Below, piece after piece: positions 592 to 20,000 of a stretch of 20,000 bases of DNA; positions within the stretch are counted from its first letter, which is position 1, and each line of letters starts with the position of its first letter. This stretch comes from an uncultured Clostridia bacterium (lineage in GTDB: Bacteria > CAYTYR01 > UBA6262), in contig CAYTYR010000012.1 in assembly GCA_964441745.1 (NCBI GenBank), positions 55,866 through 75,865 of the forward strand, given 5' to 3'. The notes below the pieces were generated by a model, which ran no database searches, was not told where the DNA came from, and saw only the letters and a program-made list of their open reading frames with translations. Both the position numbers and the translations under genes were made by a program.

Positions 592-811
592 TTTTCTTCA
601 GCAGTTCAGCTTGCAGGTCTTTGATTTTTTTCTTTTGCGTTTTTTCAACTTTTTTATTCAGGGCCATAGCGATATCAATACAAGCGCCCTCATAAACTCT
701 TAAAGGCAGGTTAGCCACTGGAATTACCAGCTCTCCCCCGCCTCTGATCCTGATCACCGCTATTCTGCCGTCCTCTATCCGGTCAACAATGCCTAACACC
801 TGGAACTCCAA
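575..811 (-). CDS. DUF3006-like small protein
   Basis: 78 aa, TTG start. GIVDRIEDGRIAVI...IPVANLPLRVYEGACI plus a charged C-terminal helix matches the DUF3006 pattern (vDRiEg..avl...lP....EGd.l). It overlaps the MBL gene start by 17 nt, a commonly seen pairing. Confidence 0.75.
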   Translation of the reverse strand: MEFQVLGIVDRIEDGRIAVIRIRGGGELVIPVANLPLRVYEGACIDIAMALNKKVEKTQKKKIKDLQAELLKKNAQKK

Positions 812-3300: not shown

Positions 3301-3564
3301 CTATTTCGACAAGGGGAGGACGGAAATCTGTCTGGCTCCGCCTTTAGTATACTTGAATTCCACTTTACCATCGATCAAGGCAAAAAGAGTATCATCTTTG
3401 CCAATACCCACGTTCAAGCCGGGATAAAACCTGGTGCCACGCTGCCTGACTAAAATATTGCCACCCTTGACTATTTGCCCGTCTCCTCTTTTTACGCCTA
3501 ACCGCTTGCCGGACGAATCCCGGCCGTTTACGGCTGAACCGCCGCCACTCTTATTCCCTGACAT
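3301..3564 (-). CDS. rpmA: 50S ribosomal protein L27 (bL27), short type with atypical N-terminus
   Basis: 87 aa. [58 protein letters not shown] 6 nt before the ATG; lies between rplU and obgE. Confidence 0.98.
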
Positions 3565-3595
3565 TTAATTCACCTCTAATTTTTTATTATCTGTG

Positions 3596-3623
3596 CTGCG
3601 CCCGCCGACGCATTAGTGGCGGG
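3596..3623. repeat. 28-bp GC-rich palindromic element in the rplU-rpmA spacer
   Basis: CTGCG-CCCGCC-GACGCATTAGT-GGCGGG. CCCGCC (3601-3606) pairs with GGCGGG (3618-3623). Flanked by ATCTGTG and TAATCAG in otherwise AT-rich DNA. Confidence 0.7.
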
Positions 3624-3632
3624 TAATCAGTT

Positions 3633-3944
3633 TTACAAAGATATTCCGGTTATTTTTAATCTCGTAAAATCCTGCCTGTGCCCTTTCATTAAGGCATAGG
3701 ATTTCTTGGATTTGTACTTATAGACCACTACTTTTTTCTTCCGGTCGTCTAATACGACTTCCGCGTTTACCGTAGCTTTATCCAAAGAAGGTTTGCCAAC
3801 GCTGATCTTGTCCCCGTCAGCTACCATTAATACTTTGGCCAGTTTGATTTTGTCGCCTGGTTTTTTTTGCATTCTGGGCACATCAACAATATCGCCTTCT
3901 TTGACGCGATACTGGAATCCAGCTTCTTCAATAATTGCGTACAT
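3633..3944 (-). CDS. rplU: 50S ribosomal protein L21 (bL21)
   Basis: 103 aa. MYAIIEEAGFQYRVKEGD, KVLMV...VGKP, KKVVVYKYKSKK...KGHRQDFTRLKITGI. SD GAGGAG upstream. Confidence 0.98.
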   Translation of the reverse strand: MYAIIEEAGFQYRVKEGDIVDVPRMQKKPGDKIKLAKVLMVADGDKISVGKPSLDKATVNAEVVLDDRKKKVVVYKYKSKKSYALMKGHRQDFTRLKITGISL

Positions 3945-3959: not shown

Positions 3960-4020
3960 TTTTTAATCTGTGTAATCAGCTTTTTAATCTGTGTAATCAG
4001 CTTTTTAATCTGTGTAATCA
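3960..4020. repeat. Direct tandem repeat, 21-bp unit x 2.9
   Basis: TTTTTAATCTGTGTAATCAGC at 3960-3980 and 3981-4001, plus a 19-bp third copy at 4002-4020. Copies are identical, with no spacers. Confidence 0.95.
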
Positions 4021-4044: not shown

Positions 4045-4076
4045 AAATAAAAGCAATAAGAGAGCCTCTTATTGCT
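4041..4076 (-). terminator. Intrinsic terminator-like hairpin with U-rich tail
   Basis: Minus strand AGCAATAAGAG-GCT-CTCTTATTGCT (4076-4052) followed by TTTATTTATTT, about 57 nt after the giant gene's stop. The stem is AT-rich for a terminator. Confidence 0.6.
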
Positions 4077-4083
4077 CTGTATA

Positions 4084-4133: not shown

Positions 4134-7100
4134 TTACCTTAAACGGGCCATTTTCTTCTTGATTACCTTTTCCTGGCCATTACCACGGATGATCAAACGA
4201 TATATATATACTCCATTGGCTATATCTTCGCCATATCTGTTCTTACCATTCCAGAAGGTTTCATTATAGCCAGCTTCCCTGGCTCCATCTCCTGTTTCAT
4301 ATATAAGCTCACCATTAAGATCATACACTTCTATTCGTACTTCATCGGCAGTACTGGGAAGGACATAAGTAAATTTAGTATCTTCTTTGAACGGATTAGG
4401 ATAGTTAATAACTTTTTCAGCGTTAATCTCATCTGAAACCAGGAAAATTATCTCTTGGCTGACAGTTTTATTATTGGCCCGGTCATAAGCTTCTACTTTA
4501 GCAGAGTATGTGCCATTAGGTAACTCATTATCAGGACAATAACTGCCCTTCCAATCAGGTGCGGCTATTTCCTGCACTAAGCAAGTTTTGGCTTCACTAT
4601 TTAATATAACCTTTACCTGATTAACATCAATACCGCTGGTCTGGTCAAACAAACCAAATTTAAGCTCCGGCCTGGCGGAAACATAATCACCATTTATAAA
4701 GTTATCCTGTATTTTAACATTACTGATAGCCGGAGCAACTGTATCGATCAGGAACGACCAGCTAACCGCTGCCTGGTTGCCATTCAAATCCTTTACCTGT
4801 ATTTCTGCAGTATGCCAGCCTTCGCTCCAGCCGCTCGCCAATTGCCCTTTTACTTTTTTAATATTACTTAGTACTGTATTAACCTTCTCCACTGATTTAT
4901 CATAGGCAAAAGCATTAGCTTTACCGTCAATTTTCAAAGATACGCTGGTCAAATCGATCCCAACGCCGGTATCCTGAATGAGCGCGCTAATATCAGGATT
5001 GGGATTATTTAGGAATACCCCATTAGCCGGAGTAATCTCGCTTATTACCGGCGGAGTAGTATCAACTGCTGTATTTTTATCAAAGGAAGCTGTATTCCCG
5101 GCTATATCCTGTACGGTAATAGTGAACTTAAGGATACCATTAACCAAAGTTTCTGTTGGTTGATACAGCAATTGCCCGGTAGCTGTTTCATAAGAGCAAG
5201 TGATTGGCTGATCATTGTATTTTACCTTTATGGTCTTAGGATCAATACCGCTAAATGAATCAGTCAAACTGAAAAGCAGGATTGGCTTATCGACAGCTAT
5301 GCTGATCCCGTCTTCATTGACCAAGTTGGATATAGCCGGAGGTGTAAGATCGACCTTAAATGACCACTTTAATGCAGAAGTATTCCCGGCATTATCCTGG
5401 CATAGTACGATAAATTCGTGGTTCCCTTCCTGCCAGGTCACGGCATTGCTCAAAGTCACAGTCCCGTTATTGTCATAAGTGCAATCGATTGGATTACCAT
5501 CGAGTTTGGCCTGTAATCCGGTTCCCGTTGTACCGCTAATACTATCTGTAATTCTGACAAAAGCAGCCTTCGCGCCATTATAGAAGCTATCCGGCAGCGG
5601 ATAATATTGCTCTGCTACCGGCCCTTGTGTATCTATACTGAATTTCCAATCTACAGTGATCTGTTCCCCTACTATATCTTTGCCCTTCAGCCTAACATTA
5701 TGCAAGCCGTCTATCAGGCTATTGGGAATATAAACCATCCGGCCGGAAAGTTCATCATAATGAGATGCCACTTTATTATTATCCAGATATAATTCGACAG
5801 TTTGTGGGTCTATTCCGCCGCCCACATCTGATAATAAGCAGGAAATAACCGGTTTACTGACATTGGTAATAGTATTATCCGCCGGGGTTAGCGTGGTCAC
5901 TTTCGGCGCTTCGTTATCTACGGTAAATTCCCATTTGAATTCAGTCTTATTTTCAACCACATCTTCGGCATAGACTGACACTGTATGCTTTCCCGGCGCC
6001 AGCATTTCAATCGGGGTATAATTTAATTGCCCGCGGAAATATTCTGAAGATGAGTAAATATGTTTGACTACCTGCCCATCCAGTTTCACAACTATGGTAT
6101 CAGGATCGATACCAGTTCCCATATCTTCTACTGTGGCGCTGATTTCCGGCGTAAAATCTTTGGTAGCCGTATTTTGCTCAGGCTGTAATTTAATAATCTT
6201 AGGCGGATTCTGTTCTGCAAACACCGCAAATTTGCCTACCCTGGTCGGGACCGCTACCATGGCTTGCTTATCAGGATCGTAAAAACTGTCTTTCAAGACT
6301 TCCCACCGGCCAGGCTGTGTGACTGTGCCGTTGGCGTCTTTTTCTTCTTCAACAAACCCGTATACTTTCATTTTTGAAGTTACTATGGTGTACTTTTCAT
6401 CAGGATCAAGGGTTTCTCCTCCGCCGCCATAACTCCGGTTCAACAAATTATCCAGCGCTGCCATATCAATACCCATTTCGAGGATAGGGGTACCGTTAAG
6501 AGTGACTTTGGACAGATCAAATCCCGGATCGTATCCCCCACCAGCAGTATTCCATATTTCCGGGGGCGGGCCTGTTCCCGTGTTTAAATTTATATTATAA
6601 CTTTGTCCAACCATCACTATCCCAGGATGATACTTGCTCATATCTATGGTTACCGGCTGGACTGTCCCTTCGGAAACAACTGCCGGAACTTCTTCGTACT
6701 CATTGGTGACATAGTACAAATACCTGGGAGCTTCAATAGTACTTGGAGCACCAGGCCCTTGCGGAATGACCGGCTGAACTCCAGCCGGAATGATAAGTTC
6801 AACTTTTTTATCGACACTGGTTACCTTGCCGCCTGTGGCCACTGGGATGTCCGCAACTGCTAAACCAGTCTTGGTCTCCACCACCTCACCGATGGTTAAA
6901 TCCGGGCTAAACACAGTAATATTAACTTCCCCATTGTAATAAGAAAGCTGTTGAGGCAGGTAGGTAACATACTTAATTTCATTTTTCTGGGTGGTTGGAT
7001 TATATACTTCCAAAGCATCAACGTTTACTGTCACCGGCGGCGGCATTACTCCTTCTGCATCAGGCGAAGCGCCAGGGAAATCAAGCACTAATTTGATAGT

Positions 7101-10100
7101 CTTGGGTGGAGTAAAATATGTTTTATTACTGGTGAAATTCTCCAGCATAATATAATCAGGATTAGGCACAGCTTTAAATTTGATCTCAGTTTTAATGGAA
7201 TCAACAAAGATATCAGTATTGGCGGATAAACTGCTTTCGTTGCCAGCTGTGTCATAAGCTTTGGCAGCATAAAAATATTTGCCGTCAACGCCAGGAACAT
7301 CCACTATGAATTTAGCATTTTCTGCCACATCATTAGATTGCGCTCCAATATTATTGGCTCTCGGATCCAGCGCAGTCATACCAGTAGTATTCAGGACTGG
7401 AGTTAAAGCTCTATAAACTTTATAAGAGCATCCGGTCTCTTGTTCCTCCCAATACACTTCCACTACTCCCAGTTTTAAGACCTTGGAACCTATGTTTTGC
7501 GGTGATGGCGGCGGAACCGTATCAACCACAAATTTGCCGCCCGTAGAAGCGTATGTAGCAGTAATTCTTTCGCCCAGGTAATGCTCCATATAACCGTCAG
7601 AGTATTCAGAGCTATGGTCATATTCATACCGCACGCCTTCTATTTCTGTAGATTCCACCCGTTGACGGTCAATCCCATGGAAATAGAAACTGCCTTCTCC
7701 ATTGGCGCTATTTTCCTGTATCGTGATCTTTCCTTCCCAGGTATCACCGAAGCCGCTCATTTTGACCGGAATTACCAGCTGGTCATTAAGTTCATAGGAT
7801 AATTCAGGTATATCGGAAAGAGGCCTGGAAGTTTTCAATAATATCCGGTAGTCTCCTGCTTTCAAAGCTTTGGTAACCAGTTTATTTTCCTCAAGATTTG
7901 GCACTTGCTTGTAAATTTCAGGAATTATAATAGTGGCAATTGCCCTGGTAGTATTGATAGTAAAAGTATGGCCATAAGCGATCTTATCGGAAGTATTATT
8001 GTTTTCATCCGTGCCCAGGTAGGAAAATTCCGCTAAACCATCACCAGTATCCTTGGTAATAGTCATTTTCCCCTGCCACAGACAGCCTGAGCCAGTTAAT
8101 AACACTTCGATCGGCTCTTTACTTAGCGGTGTATATTTCAATAGCGGAGCAGTTGACAGCGGTTTGGAGGTTTCCAGGTCCACCACCACTTCTCCTTCAC
8201 CAACGATGGAAGTATTCATAATTCCCGAGTATTGGTCATGCAAAGAAATTGTCGCTACAGGTATATTATGGATAGACTGTGCGGAAACACAACTGCTTAA
8301 ACCGCTTTGGTTAGTGGCCCGGTCTATTCCAACAAGCGCATAATAATACGTACCGTCTTTAGGCGGTATATCCACATATTCATATATTGGTAATATTGCC
8401 GGAGCATCCATTTTATAGATCATCACTGCCTGGTCAACAGTAGTGAAAATCTGCTCCGAACGATAAATCTCGTAATAATGGGTTATTTCACCGGTAGGCG
8501 GTTTCCAGGTTATCTTGATCGCGCCAGAAGTGTTTTCGTTATAAGCAACAGCCTCTAATGGCAGAGGGGTTGCCGGCGCTACTGTATCCACAACAAAATA
8601 ATCAGTGAAATTGCCATTTGGCTCAATGATGGTGCTGGCCAATCCATCGGCGTCTACGCCAACCCACTTAAAAGTTGCCACACCATCTCCAAAATTAGTA
8701 TCCACATTAAACTCTCCATACCAGCTTTGCCCATTATTCTTCAGGTCAACCGGTAGAGGAGCTTTGTCTAGCGGATTAACTGTTAACTGAGGCGGATTGT
8801 TCGGATCCAAAGGTTCATTTACATCAAGTTTTACATTATATATACCACTTTTTAAGATATAGGTACCATCCACGCCATAAGCAATATTTCCGGCCAGGGA
8901 TAGCTTGGCTTTGACCGGATAATTAATGTACTTATATTCAAAAACAACCTTATTGGAATAAGCGCTCTCGTTGCCATATTTATCCACTGCGGTTACCGTG
9001 AAGCTGTAGAGCCCGTTCTCCTGGGGACAACCGTAAATTTCTGTCCAAATAATACCAGAATTGAAAGATTGCATATTGCCGCTAATATCACCTTTAGCGC
9101 TGATTTGGACATTATAATAGAATGGTGTTTCGCCTTCCGGCTTTTCCCAGGTCAGATGTAAAACACCGGTAGGTAAAGTTGAAACGCTAAGATTGACCGG
9201 CGGCAAAGGCACCGTCCTGACTGTCTGTAGCGGACTTTCTAAACAAGTAACGGCGCTCTTATTTCCAGCTTTATCTACAGCTGCGATAGCATAATAATAT
9301 TCAGCATCAGTCGGGGGAACATCCCAGGTAGGATATGGCAATGGGCTAAGGCCGTTTACATTGTCGACCTTCTCCCTGGTCCGATACACCTGGTAATAAT
9401 CTCCCGCTTGCGCTGTCGGCGCTTCCCAGCCAAATTCTATGCCATGCAGGCCTCCGCTATAGTCTGTGGCTTGAGCTACAAAATTAATGGGCGCTTCTGG
9501 CGGAACCGTATCAATCTTGAACACTTTCCCGGTATTTATTTTCTCTTCTATATTGCCAGCCTGATCAGTACCCCGGTAATTGAATATTGCCAATCCATCA
9601 CCAGTCAAAGTAGAAATATTAACATAGCCGACCCATTGATTGCCTGACCCGGTCAGGGGTATCATTATTTTATCATTACCAGAAGGGATGAAATCAAGAT
9701 ACGGAATGTCTTTCAAGTCTTCTGAAGTGGTAAGCGTAACTTTTGTCTTGCCCGCGCCAGCGGCTGTATTAGGTTGAGTCAAATCCAGTTTAATATTTGC
9801 TACCGGTCCAACTGTATCAATGATGAAGGTTTGTCCTTTACTGATTGCAGTACCAGTCAAACCGCTCTTGCCTTTCCCTGAAAAAGCAAAAGTTGCCACG
9901 CCTTCTTCAATGGCCACGGGTATATCCACCTGGCCGTGCCAATTACAGCCACTGCCAGTGAGGGAGATATTCTGGGCCGCTGTCTTCTCCGGAGTCAGGG
10001 CTAATACTGGCACTTCAGCCATTTCCTCCGAAGTGATCAAGGTAATATCCAGCAATCCGGCTCCAACCGGTGAGTTCCGCGAGATTATTATCTCTGCCTG

Positions 10101-13100
10101 CGGGAATGTTGACCAGAACTGCAAAGACTTGCCGGCTGTCATAATACTGGCATTGCCAACTTTATCCAGGCTAACTAACTGATATGTATATAAACCATTC
10201 AATACAGTGGTATCAATATATTCATTGCCATTAGTTTCGGTTAAGAATGCGCCATTGCGGAAGATCTGGTATTTTTCCGGCATTTCTCCCAGTGGGGACT
10301 GCCAATCTATTTTTATTCCCTCATTTACCTGCCAGAGAGATACCTCACGCGGACTGCCTGGCGCTACACGGTCACTACTGCCGGCAACACTTGCTGAAAG
10401 CTCACTCTCCTGGCCATCAGCATCAATAGAGGTTACGGCATAATAATAAAGACCATCACTGATAGGAAGATCCGTGAAGCTTAATACAGTCAAATTTTGC
10501 CGATAAAGATTCTCCGTCATCTTGACGGTCATTGGATACTGGGCCCGGTAAATGTTATAACCTTGGAGGTTGTAATCCTGCGGCGGAGTCCAACTCACCA
10601 CCATCGCCCCGCTTTTAGCGCTATTGACGAGGATATTAGACGGGGCAGCAGCAGGAAGGTTGTCGATCATGAACTTATCGCCAGCGGCAATTTCTGTCCC
10701 ATAATTATTCAATAGGTCCTTGCCAGCAAAGGAAAAATAGGCATAGCCGCTTTTCATGTCACTGGTTATATCCACCACGCCCTGCCAATTGCGGCCAGCG
10801 CCAGCCAAAGTAACTGGCAGCGGCAAACCGCCCATAGTAGTCAAGGTTAAGAGCGGGGTTTCTACCAGGTTTTCACTAGCAGTCAGGTTAACCGTTACTT
10901 TGCCTGTATGCACGGGTGAGAATGGGCTGATGGTTATTTGACAGGAAGGCCCGCCGCGGTCAATGATAAAAGTGCTCCCGGTAGCAATAACATGGCTCAC
11001 CAGTCCGTCAGTATCAGCGCCTTCATATTCAAAGGTTGCCACACCATCCAGCGCCTCTTTGCTTATTTCCAGACTGCCGACCCACTTATTGTTTTCCTGG
11101 TGCAAAGTGATCACTGGATTAACATAAAAATCACGCATCGTCGAATTATTAACACTGCCATAACTTCCAGCGGGGAAATGGCAGACCAGCTTGGGCGCCT
11201 GAGCCAGTTGTTTGTCGCAACTCAGGGTAATATTAATACCGGTACTGACCGGTGAAGGCGGATCAATGGCAATATTGGCCACTGGCAGGTATTGCACAAA
11301 ATCAATTTGCGGACAATTCGATAATAGGCTGGCATTACCAGCTTTATCTTTGGCAATGACTGCATAATAATAAGTATTGCTGGCGTTAGGGACATCCAGT
11401 GCACTAAGACAATAATATGTTCCCAACTTTTCATTGGATGAAACTGCAGTTATTAACGCAGCACTGCGATACACTTCATAACAAACAGCGCCATCAACCG
11501 CATTCCAGTCCAGCTTAACCGACTTTCCTTGCTGATCAGTCAGAGTTAATAGCGGCGAAACCGGCGCTGTACGGTCTGATATTCCTTTAATCCAGGCAGT
11601 AGGTTTGCTAATGTTATTGCAGGTATCTTCAGCAATTAGAGCATAATAGTATTCACCATCAGCAGGTGGCAAATCAGTCAAACTGTTGCTGCTGAATTTC
11701 GTCACTGGTACTAAACCATCCATAGTTTGCGCCGGTGCAATTTCGCGGTACAGGTAATAATTCTTGACTTTTTCCGTAGCATACCAGCTAAACTGCACAT
11801 ACCCGTTAGCGTTGCTGGCAGCGGCAAAATCATCGATAAACGGAGCTACTGTATCTATTACCACTTCATCTATATAATTAAGGTTTATATTTGTGATTAA
11901 TATATTACCAACGTTTTGCGCCAGGTCCTCACCTCTAAATTCAAAATCAGCAGTGCCATTGCAGGTCCCGGTAGCAATAGAGATCTGGCCGGTCCAATTT
12001 AAGCCGCTCCCATTAAGAGTTATGTCCTGTTCATCTCCATTGGCAAAGACCAGTTTCAAACTTGGTTTAGCCATCAGCAATTCGCTAACAGTTAAAGTAA
12101 CCTGGGTTTCACCCACTCCGATACTTGATTTACCAATGCTCAGTTGAGCAGTTGGGCATTCTATATCGACTTCGCTATTCACTTCGTTAGAAGCTTCACT
12201 TTCATTTTGCGCCAGGTCAATACCCGTGACTTTATAGTAATATTTTCCTGATTTGACCAGGGTATCCACAGTAGCCAGACCGGCCACCCCTACCCAGGCC
12301 GGAGCAGTATTAGCAATTAAGAAACCAGGTATGTCACTGCGATAAATATTATAGGCTACCGGAATTTCGCCACTGGCTGGTAGGTCCCAGCTCAGATAAA
12401 CTTTTTTATCCGCGCCAATAACCGCTTTCAGGTTTTGCGGCGCACTGGGGATCGAACTGTCACTGGTGACTGAAGCTTTCCTGAAGTCAGCGCCAAGATT
12501 ACCGGCTTTATCCTTTGCAATTATGAAATAGAAATAATCGCCGTCCGGCACTGATGGGTCTATCCAGTTCAATCCGGAAACAACTGGGCTGACCGGAGCT
12601 AAACCAACCAGGGTCACCACATCAGCAGTACTGCGATAGATTTGATAAACAGCATCTTGTTCGCCTGATGGTGGCAGCCAGGACAACTTTACTTGCCCTG
12701 CTGGTTGGGGATCAGCTTTGAAATAAGCGCAAGCTCCAGGCAAAATATTATCTATGACGAAAGTTTGACCAGTCGATATTTCATTCCCGCTATTATTAGT
12801 TTTGTCCGTAGCCTGGAAGATAAAATTAGCCGGTCCATTGTAATTACTTGGTATATCTATATTCCCTTCCCAATGATCAGTGGCAGTACTCAAGTTTACT
12901 TCTACTGGTTCATTTAAGCCCCACTGGCATTTCAGCGAAGGAGTGCCTTCAATCGGCTCTGAAACATACAATTTCAATGGCATAACTCCGGATTTCACAG
13001 GAGAAGGAGTTGCCAGCTGAATGGTCGCTATCGGACCATGGGTATCCCGGAAAATATCAGCGCTGGCAAACTGGCTGTTTTCGTTATTGCTTATATCTAC

Positions 13101-16100
13101 ACTGGTAACCGCATAATACACCTGTCCGTCGAAATTCGGAATATCCTGGTATTCGTTAACTGTGACATTCTTGGCTAATACTGATACATTATTGATATTG
13201 GTAATCTGATTATTGGAACGGTAAATGTTATAAGTGACATCTGGTTCACTGGTCACTGTGTCCCAGCTAAGCTTGATAGCTTCACTGGTAGCAGTCAAGA
13301 TCAGGTTCTGTACCGGCTCAGGTGGCGTATTATCAGTCAGGGTAGAGACTAAATTTGAGACCAAAGATTCGTTACCCGCCTGGTCTTCACTGCAGACATG
13401 GTAATAATATCTTTGTTCAATGGTGGGCTGGTCCATGAAACTCAGGCCGGTGATGCTGGTGATCCGGGTCATATCATTCTTACCTGTTGGGGTAAAGGTT
13501 GAGCGATAAATATTAAACACATTAGCTGCCTCGCCCACTGGATTTCCCCAGAAAAGCTCAACCTGGCCATTCATGCCGGGAGTGGCTGTTAATCCAGTTA
13601 AAGCCGGCGGCGGAACCGTATCAATGACAAAACAAGAACCCGCGGTAATGATGGTTCCGATATTGTCTTTTATATCTGTCCCTTCAAAGGTGAAAACTGC
13701 CGGGCCATTCTTTGTACTGCTGGTGATAGTGACTTGGCCATGCCAGCTTTTACCGTTGCCATTTAAGCTGACTTCCTGCGGATTATCCCCTAAGGGCGTG
13801 CAAATCAATTTCGGCGCTGAAACCAGATTTTCACTGGCATTCAACTGGACTTGTAATAATCCGGCTTTGACGGGTGAAGTCGGAGAAATAGTTATGGACG
13901 CAGAGGGTGGAGTAAAATCCCACAGGATCGATTGGCTAGCCGAAATATCGCTTTCATTGCCGATACTGTCTTTAGCTGTGACCACATAATAATACATATT
14001 ATCTGCAGAAACTTTATCGTTATAGGCCGTTTGAATATTATTTTCTTTGATCAAATAGGCAGGATTGACGCCAGAGATTACAGCAGTTGACCGATATATA
14101 TTATAGGCTGACGGAATTTTACCAGCTCCTATATTCCAGCTTAGTTCTATCTCGCGATCAGCATTAATCATTACTAATAAATCCTGGGGCGCTCCTGGAG
14201 CCACCCGGTCGCTTAATACCGGCCCCATAGTATTTATTGCGCTCTCGTTGCCAGCCAGGTCAATAGCGCTGACTGCATAGTAATATTCTCCATCCACTGC
14301 AGGCGAATCAGTAAATAACAGCGCATTGAGATCTGTTTCTATTAAAAGTTCAGGATCAAGCTCTGCTATCGCTTGGGTACTGCGATAGATATTATACCCT
14401 TTAACCGGCTCGTGATCAGGCGCCTGCCAATAAAGCTGTATCGTACCTTGGCCTTGGGAAATTCCTTGTAACTGATTTGGCGGATTACTGGCTTGAGTAT
14501 CAATTATTATTTCCTTATTAACCGCTATCTTAGTACCGGCATTTCCCAATATATCAACACCTGAATATTGGAAAGAAGCCAAGCCATTAACAGTATTAGT
14601 AGAAATATCCAGGTTTGTCTTCCAAGTAGCACCGTCTTTGACCAGAGGCAAGTTAATAGTAGTGGAATCAGCTAAGATCAGATCTAATTGTGGTATATCC
14701 TGGACAGCTTCATTCAGCGCTAAAGTGATATTCACAGGTCCGGCCCTGACTGGTGAAGCTGGCGACAACGTGATCTGGGCTACTGGCCCCAGGGTATCAA
14801 TAATGAAGGTACTACCAGAGGTAATGCTGTGAGAGGTATTACCCAGGGCATCAACAGCTTCAAATTCAAAATGCGCAGTTCCGTTAGCAGCAGATGTGCT
14901 GATACTGACAGTCCCGGCCCAGTTCAGTTCACTGCCGCTTAAGGTTATTTCCTTGGTTAGATTGGCTGAATCAACCCATTTCAATATCGGTGTTGCTGGC
15001 GGCAATTCATTAAGAGTAAGATTGACCTGGACATCCCCATCTTTATACGGCGGTGTTCCGCTTAACACAATACTTGCGCTCGGCCCGGCATTATCAGGTA
15101 TCGCCCAATCTATATTAGAGATTACGCTCTCATTACCGATATTGTCGATGGCCGTAACTGCATAATAATATTTGGTATTAGCATAGAGTTGGTCCACATA
15201 ACCTAAAAATACGACATTAGTGGCTATGGGCGTAAGCGCGGCAGTATCGATATTTTCTACTATCGAACGGTATACTTTATAAGATGCCGGAGCATCCCCT
15301 GTGGGCGCATCCCAGGTCAAGACTATTTTCCCGGCAACCTGCGCACTGGCATGCAGATTTTGTGGCGGTTCTATCGAGCCGTCATCAGCTATACCTATGA
15401 CACAATTGGAAATATCGCTTTCATTACCGGCATAATCAATAGCTGTAGCAACATAATAATAACTACCTTTGACTCCGGGATTATCTATCACGCTGGTAGA
15501 GCTAATATTAACCAGCGCCGGAGTTGAACTGGCAACAGCATAGATGGTTTCAGTCGAACGATAAATCTTATAACTGGCAACATCTTCCTGAGTTGGTTTA
15601 TTCCAAGAGAGCTGTATTTTGTTGGCCGCTAATGTGTTAGTCGCAAGATTATCTGGTGGATTAGATTTACCCCGGTCAGCAACGATCGCAGGGACATAGG
15701 CAATCCCACTTTCATTTCCCAAAGCATCCAAAGCTGTAACTGTATAACAATAATAGCCATCTTTTAGAGGCACATCAATGATCTCGGTTGCGGTGGTCTG
15801 GGCGACTTCAATATATCCGGTTGGAATTATATAATTATCACGATAAACTTTATACAGGACAGCATCGGTTACGGCTGACCACGCTATTCTAATATTTGCC
15901 TGTGGTTCAGCAGTCAGCGTGAAGCTAAAATAATCCGGTGGTTTTCTGTCACTTACTGCGGACAGAGCGTTTATAACTTGGCTTTCATTGCCAGCTATAT
16001 CTTTAGAGGTAATACCGTAATAGTAAGCGCCATCTACTGGCGGCAAATCTGAACATGACAGCAAACCGCTATTAGTGGAAACAAACAAAGCAGGATCCGG

Positions 16101-19100
16101 TTGCGTAAAAGAGTAGGTAGAGCGATAGATATTGTATCCGGCAATATCCGGATCTGTCGCCGACTGCCAAGCCAGGTCAATATATCCACCCTTCTTGCTG
16201 GAGGCATTGCCGCCAGCCACTGCGGCTGGAGCAGTAAAATCTACACTGCAATTCTGGTATATTAAATAAGAGGCATTATCCACCTCATCTACAGCCGCTA
16301 ACCTGATGTCTATTAAAGCATTTTCTGCAATATTATCAATATCCCATAGGATGCTGTAATCCGCATCGCGTGAATCTGCATCCGCACCGATCAAGATCCA
16401 GTTGTTTTCCCCGGACAGAGAATATTCTGCCTGGAGCTTGACTAAAGTTGTATCAGCAGCATAGGCATAGTCTTTACCAGCAGCGGCATGAATCAAAAGA
16501 ACATTGTTTTTCTGGAATACGAAATTATCTTTGAGCTCAAGATTATTATTGATTAATCCGTTTTTCGCGCTAACTGGGGCCATAGGCGAGTTCAAGTCAT
16601 AACTGAATCCGGATATTCCCTGGGTGACTATAGTAGTTTCATCGGTTTTCGTTATCACTAATCGTACATATTTAAATGTTTCATCTTGAGGCGACCAATT
16701 TACGCTGTAATACTCATTTTCAAGAATAAAATCAGAACTATTCTCAGCAGTACCTTCCAGCGGTATCCAAATCCCATCCCAACCGTCACTCGAATCACTC
16801 GACTTTTCAAACCTGACACTTTTCACGTTGGCATCTGTGCAATAAGCTTTGGCCGGATAATTCTTGCCAACTTTGCTGTTTTTAACCGGCGCTGTCAGCA
16901 TTACATTGCCTGTTGCTGAAAAGTCCAGGGTATAACCAGTCAATATATCGCTGTAAGTATTATTATTAGCTGAATCGACTACTCTTAAACGCAAATAAAT
17001 TTCATTCGGCAAAGGATACCAACTGCAAACATAATCTTTTGTGCCAGTACCGGCAACCCGGCCAATTTCCTGCCAGCTAACCCCATCAATTGACTTTTCA
17101 AAAGACACATAAGTTAGGTCTGTATCACCTTCCGCGGTTATGACAAATTCTCCGCTGGAGATCACACTGGCCGCAGTCGGGGACATTATTACAGGTTTCA
17201 GCGGCGGGATAGTATCAACCTTAAATTGATTTTTCGAATCCGGGAACATTGGTATATTATTGACTCCGTCCCGGGCACCGGAAACGCCAATAAAAGCATC
17301 GCCATTATCACTACTGGTTTCAATATTTACTTCGCCTGTCCAAACAGTATTAATATAGCTTTTCTGTATTAAAGGATATTTAGTTGATTTTCCCATTACT
17401 TGATAATATACATTAGGGTTGACCGCAGTATTCATGGGCCGGTCAAAAACTATACTTGCAGTTAACGCTCCTACGTTCATTGGTGATTGTTTGCTCAAGG
17501 TTACCGAGGTAACCTTGGGAGTAAACTCATATTGGGATTTAAATTTTTGAATCCTGTGGGTGGAATATTCCGTAGTATAAAGTATATTATTATCAATGAA
17601 CATGCCAAAAACTCCATAGCCAGTACCACCAAATTGCCCTGGCCCGCTTCCTCTCGTTCCCAAACTACAAACCAATATTCCTTCTGGCGTATAAACATCG
17701 ACACTATAATTATAATAATTGCTTACATAAACATACCCGTTATTGTCTATTTTAATGCTGGTAGCATAATTGAACGGCCCAAAACTAAATAAATATTTAT
17801 TGTCCTGGTTAAGGTCGAAAACAGCCACATTGTTATAACATGCTACATAGGCTTTATTATCATTACTAATAGCAATATCATAAGGGTAAGTTGCATAACC
17901 ATTGCCAAACTCACCGAGATGATTTCCGTTTAAGTCGAAAATCGCGACCTGGCTATTACTATGGCTAGTCACATAGACTTTATCATTCTTTATTAGAAGC
18001 CCTTCAGGGTTTATTAAGATCGAAGTACCAAACTTACGCAAGAAAATACCATCTTGATTATATACACATACTTCACTACTGTTATAATTTCCTACATAGA
18101 TATTACCCAAGGCGTCTTTAGTAATACCGACCGGATGGTTTAGTTCAGATTGGCCAATATAACATACAAAATTACCGGTCTGGTCCATCTCCACTACACG
18201 ATTATTTGCTCCTTCAACTACATAGAGATGGCTATTATTACCTAAGCAAATACCATAAAGTGTATTTAGCTGCCCATATTGGGATCCAGTATAACTGTCA
18301 AATTCTTCCAGATACTGCAATTTACCCTTGGAAAAGGTTATAAGTTCCTTTGCTTCGACTCCGTACGTATCCTTGACCGTTAGCTTTAACTGGTAGATAC
18401 CTTCTTCGGTTTCCGGTAAGGTCAGGGTTCCCAGTAAACCATTCTCTACTGGTATCGTATATGTCCCAATCTCCTGCCACGTTCCATATCGCGCGTATTC
18501 CAGCTTGTAACTCGCAAAATCAACTCCCGCCGCGGTACCGGTAATATTAACTATATCTGAGACTACATTATAATCACTGGGTGAAGTGATAGCAGCAACC
18601 GGACTGGTCACAGATAACTTGTATTTCTGGATATTGCCACCTGAATAGTCTATGGCATAAAAACAATCAGACAGAATACAGGTCCTGTACAAGTAGCTGA
18701 AGGTCCCAGGTACTGTATTAGGAGAATTTATCCCAATCTTGTATAGTAAGACCCCATCTGTGGTGTAGACCTTAATATGATACATATTGTTTATATACAA
18801 AAGACCATCAGGCCCTTTCTCAATACCTATGAAACCATAATTAGGATCATCACTGGTGAAAGACCCAAGATATTTGCCCTGGTTGGAAATGTCAAACATA
18901 GATACAGTAATACTCCAATTAACAGTATAGGCTATATTCCCCACAATCGCGATGCCGGTCTGCGCCTTGCCTTGCGCAAAGGTATAGACATAATTCCGGT
19001 CCTTATCAAAGACCATCACATTTAAATCAAGCGAATTAGTCACATAGATATTACCCTGGCTATCTAATTCGATGCCATATGGACTGGTCAGTTGTCCAGT

Positions 19101-20000
19101 ACCAAAACTGCTACTGTAATTACCAGACGGATCAAACACTGCTATCACCTTGTTACCATAATCGCAGACATAAATATTGCCAGTTGTGTCTTTGGCCATG
19201 CCAAGAATATTCGCTGATAATATCCCCTCTCCTACGTATTTGATCAGATTAAAGTTAGTATCATATATAGCAACCCGGGAGTTAATGTTTTCTGATACCC
19301 ATAGATTACCGACATTGTCCTCAACCATGTCAAAAGACTTAAGCGGAATATTTTCCTTGTTCAGTAACTGTATCCTGCCTTTAGAAAATGTTACTTCCCG
19401 GCTGCGGCTGATATTGTATTTGTCAGTTACAGTTAACCGTACCTGATATATTCCTTCTTCTGCTTCCGGTAAGGTTAGGGTTCCCAGTAAACCATCAGTG
19501 ACCGGTGTGGTATAGGTCCCGATATCCTGCCATACTCCATACCGCGCATATTCTAACTTGTAACTGGCAAAGTCAACTCCAGCCGCGGTACCGCTGATCG
19601 GTACAATATTACTGGTCAACAGTGTATTCTTAACCGGAGCAGTCAATGCTATCTGCGGTGCGCTGAGCGCCCTGATCTTAAGCTTCTGGACGCTTTGGTT
19701 GTTCTGGTCGGTAATATATAACAAGCCATTATGGAAACTGATATCATTAATACCGGAGAACCGGCCAGGCGCACTACCTCCTCCGCCGAAACTATATAGC
19801 AGCTGCCCTTCAGGATAATAAATATTAATAGTAGTATCAGGATAGTAGCTAAAAACATATAAGAAACCTTCAGGACTCGACACCATACGATTAACATAAC
19901 CACTAACACCAAAGCTCCGCACATATTCTCCCTGCCGCGTTAGATCATATATATATATGGCATTGTAATCAGCTATATACGCCTTGTCCTGGATTACTGC
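4134..20000 (-). CDS. Giant (>=5288 aa) modular secreted/surface protein: NHL beta-propellers, Ig-like and FN3-like repeats, ZU5-like region, C-terminal FlgD-Ig/T9SS-like sorting domain; 5' end outside window
   Basis: Single stop-free frame from the TAA at 4136-4134 to the window edge. The 26 codons upstream of the track's GTG at 19922 read AVIQDKAYIADYNAIYIYDLTRQGEY, which is a propeller blade homologous to later blades, so the gene continues beyond 20000. Confidence 0.95.
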   Translation of the reverse strand, partial: AVIQDKAYIADYNAIYIYDLTRQGEYVRSFGVSGYVNRMVSSPEGFLYVFSYYPDTTINIYYPEGQLLYSFGGGGSAPGRFSGINDISFHNGLLYITDQNNQSVQKLKIRALSAPQIALTAPVKNTLLTSNIVPISGTAAGVDFASYKLEYARYGVWQDIGTYTTPVTDGLLGTLTLPEAEEGIYQVRLTVTDKYNISRSREVTFSKGRIQLLNKENIPLKSFDMVEDNVGNLWVSENINSRVAIYDTNFNLIKYVGEGILSANILGMAKDTTGNIYVCDYGNKVIAVFDPSGNYSSSFGTGQLTSPYGIELDSQGNIYVTNSLDLNVMVFDKDRNYVYTFAQGKAQTGIAIVGNIAYTVNWSITVSMFDISNQGKYLGSFTSDDPNYGFIGIEKGPDGLLYINNMYHIKVYTTDGVLLYKIGINSPNTVPGTFSYLYRTCILSDCFYAIDYSGGNIQKYKLSVTSPVAAITSPSDYNVVSDIVNITGTAAGVDFASYKLEYARYGTWQEIGTYTIPVENGLLGTLTLPETEEGIYQLKLTVKDTYGVEAKELITFSKGKLQYLEEFDSYTGSQYGQLNTLYGICLGNNSHLYVVEGANNRVVEMDQTGNFVCYIGQSELNHPVGITKDALGNIYVGNYNSSEVCVYNQDGIFLRKFGTSILINPEGLLIKNDKVYVTSHSNSQVAIFDLNGNHLGEFGNGYATYPYDIAISNDNKAYVACYNNVAVFDLNQDNKYLFSFGPFNYATSIKIDNNGYVYVSNYYNYSVDVYTPEGILVCSLGTRGSGPGQFGGTGYGVFGMFIDNNILYTTEYSTHRIQKFKSQYEFTPKVTSVTLSKQSPMNVGALTASIVFDRPMNTAVNPNVYYQVMGKSTKYPLIQKSYINTVWTGEVNIETSSDNGDAFIGVSGARDGVNNIPMFPDSKNQFKVDTIPPLKPVIMSPTAASVISSGEFVITAEGDTDLTYVSFEKSIDGVSWQEIGRVAGTGTKDYVCSWYPLPNEIYLRLRVVDSANNNTYSDILTGYTLDFSATGNVMLTAPVKNSKVGKNYPAKAYCTDANVKSVRFEKSSDSSDGWDGIWIPLEGTAENSSDFILENEYYSVNWSPQDETFKYVRLVITKTDETTIVTQGISGFSYDLNSPMAPVSAKNGLINNNLELKDNFVFQKNNVLLIHAAAGKDYAYAADTTLVKLQAEYSLSGENNWILIGADADSRDADYSILWDIDNIAENALIDIRLAAVDEVDNASYLIYQNCSVDFTAPAAVAGGNASSKKGGYIDLAWQSATDPDIAGYNIYRSTYSFTQPDPALFVSTNSGLLSCSDLPPVDGAYYYGITSKDIAGNESQVINALSAVSDRKPPDYFSFTLTAEPQANIRIAWSAVTDAVLYKVYRDNYIIPTGYIEVAQTTATEIIDVPLKDGYYCYTVTALDALGNESGIAYVPAIVADRGKSNPPDNLATNTLAANKIQLSWNKPTQEDVASYKIYRSTETIYAVASSTPALVNISSTSVIDNPGVKGSYYYVATAIDYAGNESDISNCVIGIADDGSIEPPQNLHASAQVAGKIVLTWDAPTGDAPASYKVYRSIVENIDTAALTPIATNVVFLGYVDQLYANTKYYYAVTAIDNIGNESVISNIDWAIPDNAGPSASIVLSGTPPYKDGDVQVNLTLNELPPATPILKWVDSANLTKEITLSGSELNWAGTVSISTSAANGTAHFEFEAVDALGNTSHSITSGSTFIIDTLGPVAQITLSPASPVRAGPVNITLALNEAVQDIPQLDLILADSTTINLPLVKDGATWKTNLDISTNTVNGLASFQYSGVDILGNAGTKIAVNKEIIIDTQASNPPNQLQGISQGQGTIQLYWQAPDHEPVKGYNIYRSTQAIAELDPELLIETDLNALLFTDSPAVDGEYYYAVSAIDLAGNESAINTMGPVLSDRVAPGAPQDLLVMINADREIELSWNIGAGKIPSAYNIYRSTAVISGVNPAYLIKENNIQTAYNDKVSADNMYYYVVTAKDSIGNESDISASQSILWDFTPPSASITISPTSPVKAGLLQVQLNASENLVSAPKLICTPLGDNPQEVSLNGNGKSWHGQVTITSSTKNGPAVFTFEGTDIKDNIGTIITAGSCFVIDTVPPPALTGLTATPGMNGQVELFWGNPVGEAANVFNIYRSTFTPTGKNDMTRITSITGLSFMDQPTIEQRYYYHVCSEDQAGNESLVSNLVSTLTDNTPPEPVQNLILTATSEAIKLSWDTVTSEPDVTYNIYRSNNQITNINNVSVLAKNVTVNEYQDIPNFDGQVYYAVTSVDISNNENSQFASADIFRDTHGPIATIQLATPSPVKSGVMPLKLYVSEPIEGTPSLKCQWGLNEPVEVNLSTATDHWEGNIDIPSNYNGPANFIFQATDKTNNSGNEISTGQTFVIDNILPGACAYFKADPQPAGQVKLSWLPPSGEQDAVYQIYRSTADVVTLVGLAPVSPVVSGLNWIDPSVPDGDYFYFIIAKDKAGNLGADFRKASVTSDSSIPSAPQNLKAVIGADKKVYLSWDLPASGEIPVAYNIYRSDIPGFLIANTAPAWVGVAGLATVDTLVKSGKYYYKVTGIDLAQNESEASNEVNSEVDIECPTAQLSIGKSSIGVGETQVTLTVSELLMAKPSLKLVFANGDEQDITLNGSGLNWTGQISIATGTCNGTADFEFRGEDLAQNVGNILITNINLNYIDEVVIDTVAPFIDDFAAASNANGYVQFSWYATEKVKNYYLYREIAPAQTMDGLVPVTKFSSNSLTDLPPADGEYYYALIAEDTCNNISKPTAWIKGISDRTAPVSPLLTLTDQQGKSVKLDWNAVDGAVCYEVYRSAALITAVSSNEKLGTYYCLSALDVPNASNTYYYAVIAKDKAGNASLLSNCPQIDFVQYLPVANIAIDPPSPVSTGINITLSCDKQLAQAPKLVCHFPAGSYGSVNNSTMRDFYVNPVITLHQENNKWVGSLEISKEALDGVATFEYEGADTDGLVSHVIATGSTFIIDRGGPSCQITISPFSPVHTGKVTVNLTASENLVETPLLTLTTMGGLPLPVTLAGAGRNWQGVVDITSDMKSGYAYFSFAGKDLLNNYGTEIAAGDKFMIDNLPAAAPSNILVNSAKSGAMVVSWTPPQDYNLQGYNIYRAQYPMTVKMTENLYRQNLTVLSFTDLPISDGLYYYAVTSIDADGQESELSASVAGSSDRVAPGSPREVSLWQVNEGIKIDWQSPLGEMPEKYQIFRNGAFLTETNGNEYIDTTVLNGLYTYQLVSLDKVGNASIMTAGKSLQFWSTFPQAEIIISRNSPVGAGLLDITLITSEEMAEVPVLALTPEKTAAQNISLTGSGCNWHGQVDIPVAIEEGVATFAFSGKGKSGLTGTAISKGQTFIIDTVGPVANIKLDLTQPNTAAGAGKTKVTLTTSEDLKDIPYLDFIPSGNDKIMIPLTGSGNQWVGYVNISTLTGDGLAIFNYRGTDQAGNIEEKINTGKVFKIDTVPPEAPINFVAQATDYSGGLHGIEFGWEAPTAQAGDYYQVYRTREKVDNVNGLSPLPYPTWDVPPTDAEYYYAIAAVDKAGNKSAVTCLESPLQTVRTVPLPPVNLSVSTLPTGVLHLTWEKPEGETPFYYNVQISAKGDISGNMQSFNSGIIWTEIYGCPQENGLYSFTVTAVDKYGNESAYSNKVVFEYKYINYPVKAKLSLAGNIAYGVDGTYILKSGIYNVKLDVNEPLDPNNPPQLTVNPLDKAPLPVDLKNNGQSWYGEFNVDTNFGDGVATFKWVGVDADGLASTIIEPNGNFTDYFVVDTVAPATPLPLEAVAYNENTSGAIKITWKPPTGEITHYYEIYRSEQIFTTVDQAVMIYKMDAPAILPIYEYVDIPPKDGTYYYALVGIDRATNQSGLSSCVSAQSIHNIPVATISLHDQYSGIMNTSIVGEGEVVVDLETSKPLSTAPLLKYTPLSKEPIEVLLTGSGCLWQGKMTITKDTGDGLAEFSYLGTDENNNTSDKIAYGHTFTINTTRAIATIIIPEIYKQVPNLEENKLVTKALKAGDYRILLKTSRPLSDIPELSYELNDQLVIPVKMSGFGDTWEGKITIQENSANGEGSFYFHGIDRQRVESTEIEGVRYEYDHSSEYSDGYMEHYLGERITATYASTGGKFVVDTVPPPSPQNIGSKVLKLGVVEVYWEEQETGCSYKVYRALTPVLNTTGMTALDPRANNIGAQSNDVAENAKFIVDVPGVDGKYFYAAKAYDTAGNESSLSANTDIFVDSIKTEIKFKAVPNPDYIMLENFTSNKTYFTPPKTIKLVLDFPGASPDAEGVMPPPVTVNVDALEVYNPTTQKNEIKYVTYLPQQLSYYNGEVNITVFSPDLTIGEVVETKTGLAVADIPVATGGKVTSVDKKVELIIPAGVQPVIPQGPGAPSTIEAPRYLYYVTNEYEEVPAVVSEGTVQPVTIDMSKYHPGIVMVGQSYNINLNTGTGPPPEIWNTAGGGYDPGFDLSKVTLNGTPILEMGIDMAALDNLLNRSYGGGGETLDPDEKYTIVTSKMKVYGFVEEEKDANGTVTQPGRWEVLKDSFYDPDKQAMVAVPTRVGKFAVFAEQNPPKIIKLQPEQNTATKDFTPEISATVEDMGTGIDPDTIVVKLDGQVVKHIYSSSEYFRGQLNYTPIEMLAPGKHTVSVYAEDVVENKTEFKWEFTVDNEAPKVTTLTPADNTITNVSKPVISCLLSDVGGGIDPQTVELYLDNNKVASHYDELSGRMVYIPNSLIDGLHNVRLKGKDIVGEQITVDWKFSIDTQGPVAEQYYPLPDSFYNGAKAAFVRITDSISGTTGTGLQAKLDGNPIDCTYDNNGTVTLSNAVTWQEGNHEFIVLCQDNAGNTSALKWSFKVDLTPPAISNLVNEDGISIAVDKPILLFSLTDSFSGIDPKTIKVKYNDQPITCSYETATGQLLYQPTETLVNGILKFTITVQDIAGNTASFDKNTAVDTTPPVISEITPANGVFLNNPNPDISALIQDTGVGIDLTSVSLKIDGKANAFAYDKSVEKVNTVLSNIKKVKGQLASGWSEGWHTAEIQVKDLNGNQAAVSWSFLIDTVAPAISNVKIQDNFINGDYVSARPELKFGLFDQTSGIDVNQVKVILNSEAKTCLVQEIAAPDWKGSYCPDNELPNGTYSAKVEAYDRANNKTVSQEIIFLVSDEINAEKVINYPNPFKEDTKFTYVLPSTADEVRIEVYDLNGELIYETGDGAREAGYNETFWNGKNRYGEDIANGVYIYRLIIRGNGQEKVIKKKMARLR
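4137..4420 (-). other. C-terminal FlgD-Ig / T9SS type-A-like sorting domain of the giant protein
   Basis: VINYPNPFKEDTKFTYVL...VRIEVYDLNGELI...AGYNETFWNGKNRYGEDIANGVYIYRLII...KKMARLR. It shows the YPNP start, the I.vYDl.G motif, W.G....G...ANGVY and a basic terminal strand. Confidence 0.85.
4440..6215 (-). repeat. Six tandem Ig-like repeats (~95-105 aa) with a D-x-x-[ST/G]-GID motif
   Basis: Units begin EQNPP (~6215), DNEAP (~5919), DTQGP (~5633), DLTPP (~5351), DTTPP (~5063), DTVAP (~4745). Cores are DMGTGIDPDT, DVGGGIDPQT, DSISGTTGTG, DSFSGIDPKT, DTGVGIDLTS and DQTSGIDVNQ; most end W.F.vD. Confidence 0.8.
7200..16241 (-). repeat. Stalk of ~18 fibronectin type III-like domains interleaved with 12 Ig-like domains (~97-100 aa each)
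   Basis: FN3-like units: P..P.nL...i.l.W..P......YniYRSt...D.p..dg.YYYaVtaiD.aGNES. Ig-like units: P.A.I.lsp.SPv..G...v.L...E.l...P.L....v.L.GsG..W.G.v.I....nG.A.F.f.G.D..gN....I..g..F.IDT. Counted by eye. Confidence 0.85.
17538..20000 (-). repeat. Tandem [six-bladed NHL-type beta-propeller + Ig-like spacer] units, period ~351 aa
   Basis: Partial propeller 20000-~19675, spacer ~19660-19375, propeller ~19370-18615, spacer ~18605-18325, propeller ~18320-17538. Blades read GI..D..GNIYV.dy.n..V.vFD, six counted in each complete propeller. Last blades start with GsgPGqF-like motifs and end IQKF/VQKL/IQKY. Confidence 0.85.

Follow-up and report, generated by a model that had tools for sequence, protein, structure and literature searches.

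The window analysed here, a 20,000-nucleotide stretch of contig CAYTYR010000012.1, carries on its minus strand one open reading frame that runs from window position 20000 to a stop codon at 4134-4136 and spans 5,288 codons. The gene is genuine but truncated; its product, a bacterial surface protein longer than 5,288 residues, is an uncharacterised variant of the giant modular surface adhesins with a C-terminal sorting domain. We consider it rather probable that the protein is a giant non-enzymatic fibre on the surface of a double-membraned bacterium, sorted and held by its C-terminus and carrying binding propellers at its distal end. The basis is the order of the domains, the lack of recognisable enzymes, a sorting-type domain that scores above threshold, a layout that is kept in relatives, and PorV-family genes at a related locus, L001. 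From these sequence features we infer the export route, the tethering, the extended shape and the binding function of the fibre.

Anatomy of the giant protein

No credible start codon was found for the protein inside the window, and its 5' end is cut by the window edge. An uninterrupted giant frame running off the window had been claimed from the letters alone, and this was confirmed over the 5,288 codons; a stop-free run of this length at such composition cannot be due to chance. Pfam and NCBIfam were run on two overlapping halves of the protein, with matches taken at E<=0.01, and the families NHL, fn3, Big_13, Big_12, Big_3_x, FlgD_ig, Por_Secre_tail and CHU_C were found. Module classes A, B and C were defined by self-comparison, after which hidden Markov models (HMMs) were grown from single modules of the protein. 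With these models, 18 FN3-like A modules, 13 Ig-like B modules and six Big_13 C modules were recognised. Together with two Ig-like modules between the propellers, three unassigned neck modules and the terminal domain, this makes 43 beta-sandwich modules, in agreement with the approximately 40 modules of several classes that had been predicted. The gene and its parts, from the N-terminal side to the C-terminus, are given below in window coordinates.

4134..20000, minus strand: giant open reading frame, 5,288 codons plus stop, 5' end beyond the window edge.
19686..20000, minus strand: NHL propeller of which the C-terminal part (residues 1-105) lies inside the window; an NHL repeat is matched at E 0.0054 with the piece alone, and identity to the two other propellers is 29-35%.
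19371..19673, minus strand: spacer 1, an Ig-like module (residues 110-210) that separates the first two propellers and shares 61-63% identity with spacer 2; weak PKD, He_PIG and Y_Y_Y matches only; 76% to residues 650-745 of the L001 giant protein.
18606..19358, minus strand: complete NHL propeller (residues 215-465); NHL at 27.9 bits (cut-off 20); closest in L001 is propeller 3, at 70.5%.
18321..18593, minus strand: Ig-like spacer 2 (residues 470-560), 61-63% identical to spacer 1.
17517..18308, minus strand: complete NHL propeller (residues 565-828); NHL 58.1 bits on the isolated piece.
16215..17516, minus strand: neck (residues 829-1262), made up of one B module (829-934) and three unassigned Ig-like modules (935-1262) without a Pfam family.
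7194..16208, minus strand: stalk (residues 1265-4269) of 18 A and 12 B modules, each at E<=1e-21 with our HMMs; Pfam fn3 56 bits.
6231..7193, minus strand: U module (residues 4270-4590), about 320 residues, no Pfam family.
4440..6230, minus strand: base of six Big_13 C modules (residues 4591-5187); Pfam Big_13 138.3 bits; own HMM E 1e-37 to 1e-44.
4137..4406, minus strand: C-terminal sorting-type domain (residues about 5199-5288), like FlgD_ig and like type A domains belonging to type IX secretion systems (T9SS).

At least three NHL propellers had been predicted, and one partial and two complete propellers were recovered. In the half-length scan, Pfam NHL (PF01436) reached 55.6 bits against a cut-off of 20. 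Residues 555-835 match the solved NHL domains of Thin, TRIM2, TRIM3, TRIM71 and Brat at E 1e-23 to 1e-16, with Thin and TRIM3 at 1e-23; the alignment to Brat (4zlr) joins residues 12-228 of the 281-residue query to 14-242 of 282. It can be seen from the ranking that the top 31 of the 42 solved matches are TRIM, Brat and Thin NHL domains and designed 'Pizza' propellers. The sensor of PknD follows (E 2e-12), and streptogramin B lactonase 2qc5 is the last of the 42 (E 4.7e-4). The closest solved relatives of the propeller are therefore binding modules and not enzymes, which supports the reading of the propellers as a binding head. They may serve in adhesion or in contact with a host or prey. As had been predicted, no catalytic motif, LPxTG, SLH, RTX or autotransporter was recognised, and the Pfam and NCBIfam scan at E<=0.01 showed no enzyme family in the protein.

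The modules of the stalk are arranged in the order AAAA BB AA B AA B AA B AA BB AA BB AA B A BB A. Existing models cover the Ig class of the B modules poorly: Pfam Big_12 was found in just 2 of the 13, and a B-module profile run against the sequences of the PDB gave nothing at E below 0.1.

Between stalk and base lies the U module, for which a ZU5-like region had been claimed. A distinct module was indeed found at residues 4270-4590, while its ZU5 identity is weakly supported and has no Pfam match. Pfam gave no family for U of the window protein, and ZU5 (PF00791) appeared at E 0.14 in one of 11 relatives. The best ESM Atlas matches are unnamed clusters (0.89-0.90), and the nearest cluster that carries a Pfam family is ZU5 (0.84, rated as a lead only). 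AlphaFold2 models of U built from 11 and 20 aligned rows were poor, with a mean predicted local distance difference test (pLDDT) of 54.2 and 53.9, and their confident parts are limited to residues about 121-150 and 240-335. When both poor models were compared with the PDB by Foldseek, the ankyrin ZU5-ZU5-UPA structure came first (E 2.4e-4 and 0.041). For the first model, it was followed by further ZU5 domains and by GAIN domains from adhesion receptors, and TM-scores were just 0.2-0.49 across the U matches. Because both models stand at pLDDT of about 54, these fold matches are leads only. By sequence, phmmer of U against the PDB gave nothing below E 1 and no solved ZU5 match. In its top Foldseek matches U points to eukaryotic ZU5 (ankyrin, UNC5, ZO-1) and GAIN domains, yet it has no sequence match to a solved ZU5. 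The H-F-S motif at which PIDD-type ZU5 domains cleave themselves was not seen at the corresponding strand of U. The stretch A-T-G-G-K-V-T-S-V-D-K-K-V-E-L-I-I-P-A-G presumably resembles the start of ZU5 domains. The leads are weak but mutually consistent; the ZU5-like label is no more than plausible, and the C-terminal half of U is possibly ZU5-like. If so, U might act as a force-bearing or cleavable joint, by analogy with ZU5 and GAIN domains in animal adhesion receptors.

Related proteins and the locus L001

Among 1.84 billion representative proteins, U has 24 matches at E<=1e-3, of which 14 are at E<=1e-10. Our A, B and C models were mapped onto these 24 U-containing representatives. An A module stands directly before U in 18 of them, and 16 of the 18 also have C modules after U. 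The remaining matches comprise one U-only fragment and five unrelated proteins that match merely a short stretch repeatedly. In these five (P0166, P0167, P0169, P0171 and P0173), U residues about 177-246 are matched three to five times each, so that this part of U either is like a short repeat that occurs in other proteins or has a biased composition, being rich in P, G and T. The window protein fits the stalk-U-base layout, with A before U, C after U and an alternating A/B stalk upstream. A point to be noted is that A/B stalk, U and Big_13 base together form the signature of a rare family.

The 1,124-residue fragment P0150 is colinear at 45% with the last 1,157 alignment columns of the window protein, through A, U, six C modules and the terminal domain, and of all modules the terminal domain is kept best, at 63% identity, while the others lie at 30-54%. 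P0150, P0151 and P0152, three of the 24, end in the same terminal domain as the window protein. Six others that belong to the 18 with the stalk-U layout (P0158, P0159, P0162, P0164, P0168 and P0170) end in a hydrophobic stretch of 19 residues (Kyte-Doolittle mean 1.29-2.87) with a basic tail behind it, which argues that the C-terminus lies at the membrane. A C-terminally exported and possibly tethered rod had been proposed; the tethering gains support from these six helix-ended relatives, while the export route is one that we infer. None of the 24 proteins matches the NHL propeller of the window protein. The head of P0165 has discoidin, PPC, Sad1/UNC and Big_5 domains, and no enzyme family was found in six scanned relatives at E<=0.001. 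As far as can be read from these sequences, shaft and base are conserved in the family, and heads and C-terminal anchors can be exchanged. With shaft and base kept and the ends swapped, the C-terminus would lie at the cell and the head would point away from it.

The original prediction named three findings that would speak against it: a characterised full-length homologue, a catalytic N-terminus and a chimeric assembly. With the head and neck as query, 7 matches at 22-31% identity were obtained among 1,146 scored candidates of 2,908-9,254 residues. With the last 1,119 residues as query, 20 matches at 23-38% were obtained among 1,202 candidates of the same size range, through Big_13 modules only. 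No close full-length homologue and no characterised one was found among the proteins of 2,908-9,254 residues or among the U-containing representatives.

A scan of 185,579 species genomes gave 48 pattern matches and two confirmed stretches, which represent one related locus, L001, on contig CAZFDO010000017.1. The giant open reading frame of L001 (L001:7424-16336) codes for 2,971 residues without reaching its 3' end; it aligns colinearly, at 70.9% identity, with residues 1-2085 of the window protein. A 62% alignment of query residues 4-571 to L001 was rejected, as it was shifted between repeated propeller-Ig units. The L001 giant protein begins with a typical signal peptide that ends A-F-A before E-P-Q, and a propeller follows directly. 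No catalytic domain was found between signal peptide and propeller, so that the N-terminus known from this relative holds no enzyme. Provided that the window protein resembles L001, about 540-885 residues would lie N-terminal to the window.

The head of the L001 protein consists of five propellers separated by Ig spacers. Spacer 1 and propeller 2 of the window are closest to spacer 2 and propeller 3 of L001 (76% and 70.5%), and the last spacer and propeller of the window to the last ones of L001 (78% and 65%). The fourth propeller of L001 has no closest partner in the window, and the partial first propeller of the window is 28-32% identical to any L001 propeller. When the cassettes of propeller and Ig spacer are compared (window 17517-20000; L001 7424-12565), their number and order differ, and the window holds a mosaic set. 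This head evolves by duplication, loss or exchange of cassettes. Neck modules are 86%, 88.5% and 90% identical between the two proteins, with the fourth at 79%, and stalk modules 66-91%. The three neck modules at 86%, 88.5% and 90%, which have no Pfam family, are the best conserved of all modules compared in full with L001. Identities of 65-70% for the propellers against 79-90% for the four neck modules fit a variable binding end on a conserved shaft. The lower conservation of the head relative to the neck suggests that the binding end changed faster, by gain or loss of cassettes.

Genes of the PorV/PorQ family lie beside the giant gene of L001. An intact one, with 170.9 bits (cut-off 90) and a match to the solved PorV 6h3i at E 1.9e-4, is found 1.3 kb upstream. 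A second one abuts the giant gene and is split into an N-terminal open reading frame at 6535-6840 and a C-terminal one at 6900-7427, the stop of which is overlapped by the giant frame by 4 nucleotides. The split (6535-7427) is a frameshift, which reflects either real decay or an assembly error. A LysM protein is also encoded upstream. At L001 3-4290 there is a protein of at least 1,254 residues with Big_13, CarboxypepD_reg, internal FlgD_ig/CHU_C-like modules and a terminal FlgD_ig domain; its frame is interrupted by a run of 10 N. Adjacency of this tagged protein, the giant and the PorV-family genes indicates that tagged surface proteins cluster with PorV-family genes. The L001 record is labelled Clostridia, and the label or the binning may be wrong. 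The label is doubtful because the giant protein is 71% identical to that of the window, the Obg of which groups with Elusimicrobiota, and because genes for outer-membrane beta-barrels lie on the L001 contig.

The C-terminal domain, the host lineage and competing explanations

A T9SS-like C-terminal domain had been claimed for the protein, and the claim stands: the domain scores above the cut-offs of TIGR04183 (T9SS type A; 29 bits against 23) and FlgD_ig (PF13860; 44 bits against 27), and, of the solved structures, the C-terminal domain of PorU, a T9SS sortase, matches it best (6za2, E 1.7e-7). FlgD Ig domains (about 4e-3) and PorZ (0.13) rank after PorU. Por_Secre_tail (PF18962) gave 27.3 bits against a cut-off of 27 on the isolated piece and 20.6 in a long piece. 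CHU_C (PF13585) stayed below its cut-off (20.5-25.9 against 27), and TIGR04131 (T9SS type B) had no match to the window protein at E<=0.01. A FlgD hook-cap protein consists of an N-terminal FlgD domain and an Ig-like domain, with about 200-300 residues in all. This identity was rejected, as the Ig-like part alone matches and the FlgD equivalog models reach 16-32 bits against cut-offs of 230-383. The terminal domain reads Y-D-L-N-G-E-L where RgpB has F-D-M-N-G-R-R. According to the part of PMC11285876 consulted, this loop of RgpB (Lbeta3beta4) and its glycine are needed for secretion.

The host was placed by the Obg protein encoded in the window, the best named match of which is 84% identical and labelled Elusimicrobiota. 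A maximum-likelihood tree of Obg was built from 40 rows (the window, 31 labelled matches and 8 unnamed top matches chosen from 120 listed). The window falls in a clade (support 98/95) with all 12 rows labelled Elusimicrobiota, and 17 rows labelled Firmicutes lie across a 100/99 branch from that clade. This is a single-gene tree with row labels as given by their sources, and by it the source organism is probably a member of the Elusimicrobiota. A Firmicutes origin, drawn from the ESM Atlas rows for Obg and from the label of L001, was rejected by the tree. Firmicutes usually have the gene of the Prp protease between rplU and rpmA, together with an extended L27. In the window, rplU and rpmA (3301-3944) are 68 nucleotides apart with no gene between them, and L27 has no N-terminal extension, which fits the placement outside Firmicutes. 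Elusimicrobiota are listed among the phyla enriched in proteins of more than 5,000 residues, to which no function is assigned, in the available portion of PMC11573180 and likewise in that of bioRxiv 10.1101/2023.11.21.568195. The terms NHL, FlgD and type IX do not occur in those portions of the two main texts. We found no literature linking Elusimicrobia to T9SS or PorV, and the few papers found to hold both terms did not connect them.

Under the reading we favour, a Sec signal peptide, seen in L001 only, would take the chain to the periplasm. The C-terminal Ig-like domain would then act as a sorting signal of the T9SS type A kind, handled by outer-membrane proteins of the PorV/PorQ family, which would bring the fibre through the outer membrane while its C-terminal end stays at the surface. 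Near the outer membrane, the six Big_13 modules and U would form a cell-proximal base, and the 30-module FN3/Ig stalk and the neck a spacer. At approximately 3.5-4 nm per module, the 43 modules would extend over about 150 nm. The NHL propellers at the distal N-terminal end would bind a ligand, which may be another cell, the surface of a host or prey, or a polymer. A bolder proposal is that a T9SS-like C-terminal domain and PorV-family sorting operate in Elusimicrobiota, beyond the Fibrobacteres-Chlorobi-Bacteroidetes (FCB) phyla. There they would display previously undescribed modular giant fibres with an FN3/Ig stalk, a membrane-near ZU5/GAIN-like U, heads that can be exchanged (NHL propellers in this protein, discoidin/PPC in others) and anchors that can likewise be either a sorting domain or a membrane helix. 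To this proposal as a whole we would give little credence at present.

Several points weigh against the surface fibre. Some propellers of the NHL fold are enzymes, and sub-threshold matches to models of the enzyme fold were seen in the propellers (Vgb lyase 28.2 bits against 50; SGL 23.6 against 26.3). The signal peptide and the full head are known solely from the relative L001, and the N-terminus lies outside the window. The PorV-family neighbours, too, lie in L001 and not in the window, and they score below the equivalog cut-offs (PorV 63 against 250; PorQ 102.8 against 220). Por_Secre_tail barely reaches its threshold of 27 on the isolated piece (27.3) and misses it in the long piece (20.6), a FlgD_ig fold occurs widely and is not necessarily a sorting signal, and the structure model of U is poor (pLDDT of about 54). 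Finally, the Obg tree places the host with Elusimicrobiota, outside the FCB phyla, and T9SS genes are described as absent outside these phyla in the part of PMC11285876 consulted.

The last points bear on the alternative that the terminal FlgD-type Ig domain is merely structural, and that a different export path leads to release of the protein or to its incorporation into a sheath or an S-layer-like coat, with no tethering by the C-terminus. FlgD_ig indeed outscores the T9SS models (44 bits against 29 and 20.6-27.3), the host groups outside the phyla in which PMC11285876, so far as its text was available, places T9SS genes, and the literature gave no link between Elusimicrobia and T9SS or PorV. 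However, the domain is exactly C-terminal in the window protein, P0150, P0151 and P0152, it is the best conserved module in the comparison with P0150, and it matches the C-terminal domain of PorU better than FlgD (1.7e-7 against 4e-3). Moreover, PorV/PorQ-family genes flank the L001 homologue, and relatives carry a membrane anchor at the same position instead. We hold a purely structural role to be unlikely, though it deserves to be kept in mind. It is improbable that the propellers are enzymes of the lyase, lactonase or amidating-lyase type and the giant a surface-displayed degradative enzyme. The sub-threshold Vgb_lyase (28.2/50) and SGL (23.6/26.3) scores, a score of 146.7 against a cut-off of 350 for the ScyF NHL protein model on the window protein, and the match to streptogramin B lactonase 2qc5 (E 4.7e-4) might be taken in that sense. 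But the scores of the enzyme models lie below curated cut-offs and reflect the shared fold, the best 31 of the 42 solved matches are TRIM, Brat, Thin and 'Pizza' propellers with the lactonase last, and neither the window protein nor the six scanned relatives showed any other catalytic family.

One might suspect that the frame arose by misassembly, as an artefact or chimera, or that it is a functionless pseudogene in decay, since the gene is repetitive and comes from an assembled contig, and since a split PorV-family gene and a run of N occur in L001. Against this stand the 5,288 codons without a stop and the absence of any long near-identical DNA repeat. The longest direct repeat within the gene is 194 nucleotides at 77% identity, and the remaining repeat families are 26-54 nucleotides long, with copies nearly all 60-85% identical. 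DNA repeats that are so short and diverged indicate that the protein repeats are old and diverged, and collapse of near-identical repeats in assembly, which it had been advised to check, is therefore unlikely. Two independent sequences are colinear with the window protein, L001 over residues 1-2085 (70.9%) and P0150 over the last 1,157 columns (45%), which argues against a chimera; the same module order recurs in 18 independent representatives. The composition is also similar to that of the flanking housekeeping genes, G+C being 0.39-0.48 in the giant gene and 0.46-0.51 in those downstream, which is close. An artefact of any of these kinds is very improbable.

Known systems and the flanks of the window

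LapA, SiiE and the ice-binding adhesins are exported by the type I secretion system (T1SS) and are long chains of Ig-like spacers that present distal ligand-binding domains. The surface fibre proposed here shares the chain of Ig-like spacers with these giant adhesins, and differs in that neither RTX repeats nor a T1SS signal was found in the window protein by Pfam and NCBIfam at E<=0.01. Its polarity would also be opposite, with the C-terminus proximal and the binding head N-terminal. SprB, the gliding adhesin of Flavobacterium johnsoniae, is a filament of several thousand residues with repeated beta-sandwich modules and a type B C-terminal domain. By that description the fibre proposed here would be alike in being a giant surface filament of repeated modules whose export depends on a C-terminal domain. 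In contrast, the window protein has neither a type B domain nor SprB repeats, it has an NHL head, and there is no evidence of gliding.

The nearest likeness at the C-terminus is to the T9SS type A cargos RgpB, HBP35 and PorU/PorZ of Porphyromonas gingivalis, in the C-terminal Ig-like domain of about 90 residues, which is TIGR04183-positive in the window protein. The likeness extends to the D-x-N-G loop, which resembles the Lbeta3beta4 motif of RgpB as given in the consulted part of PMC11285876, and to the PorV-family genes beside the L001 homologue, though these are below equivalog cut-offs. Unlike these cargos, the window protein is 5-10 times longer, and its host groups with Elusimicrobiota and not with the FCB phyla. 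It is worthy of note that such a tag, T9SS-like and neighboured by PorV-family genes, occurs in a lineage from which no type IX secretion is known. With more than 5,000 residues, the window protein is one of the uncharacterised 'huge proteins' of Elusimicrobiota and related candidate phyla, and such an architecture is not described in the portions of the surveys available (PMC11573180; bioRxiv 10.1101/2023.11.21.568195).

Giant Elusimicrobiota proteins lack an assigned function, at least in the text of PMC11573180 at hand, and this gene offers a readable anatomy, a polarity with the base at the C-terminus and the binding head at the N-terminus, and a few relatives from which constant and exchanged parts can be told apart. 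Should sorting domain and PorV-family neighbours truly cooperate, type IX-like secretion would reach further than is known so far. Binding of other cells by the propellers, if it occurs, would give a handle on the attachment of mostly uncultured, often host-associated bacteria. If none of this holds, the gene is one more giant adhesin-like protein, useful for annotation and unsurprising.

Downstream of the giant gene and on the same strand lie rplU, rpmA, obg, proB, a DUF3006 gene and a fragment encoding a ComEC-type metallo-beta-lactamase. The interval between the giant gene and rplU holds the following feature.

4050..4078, minus strand: terminator-like hairpin with a 13-pair stem and a T-rich tail, 56 nucleotides after the stop of the giant gene; a consensus match only.

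Between this hairpin and the start of rplU, a perfect 21-nucleotide tandem repeat of 2.9 copies (100% matches) is found at 3960-4020. Rfam, run over the whole window, gave no family, ribosomal-protein leaders included. At the far end, the DUF3006 gene (575-811, minus strand) is followed by a secreted protein of the metallo-beta-lactamase fold (1-591, minus strand), which runs off the window edge and matches the C-terminal part of ComEC/Rec2.

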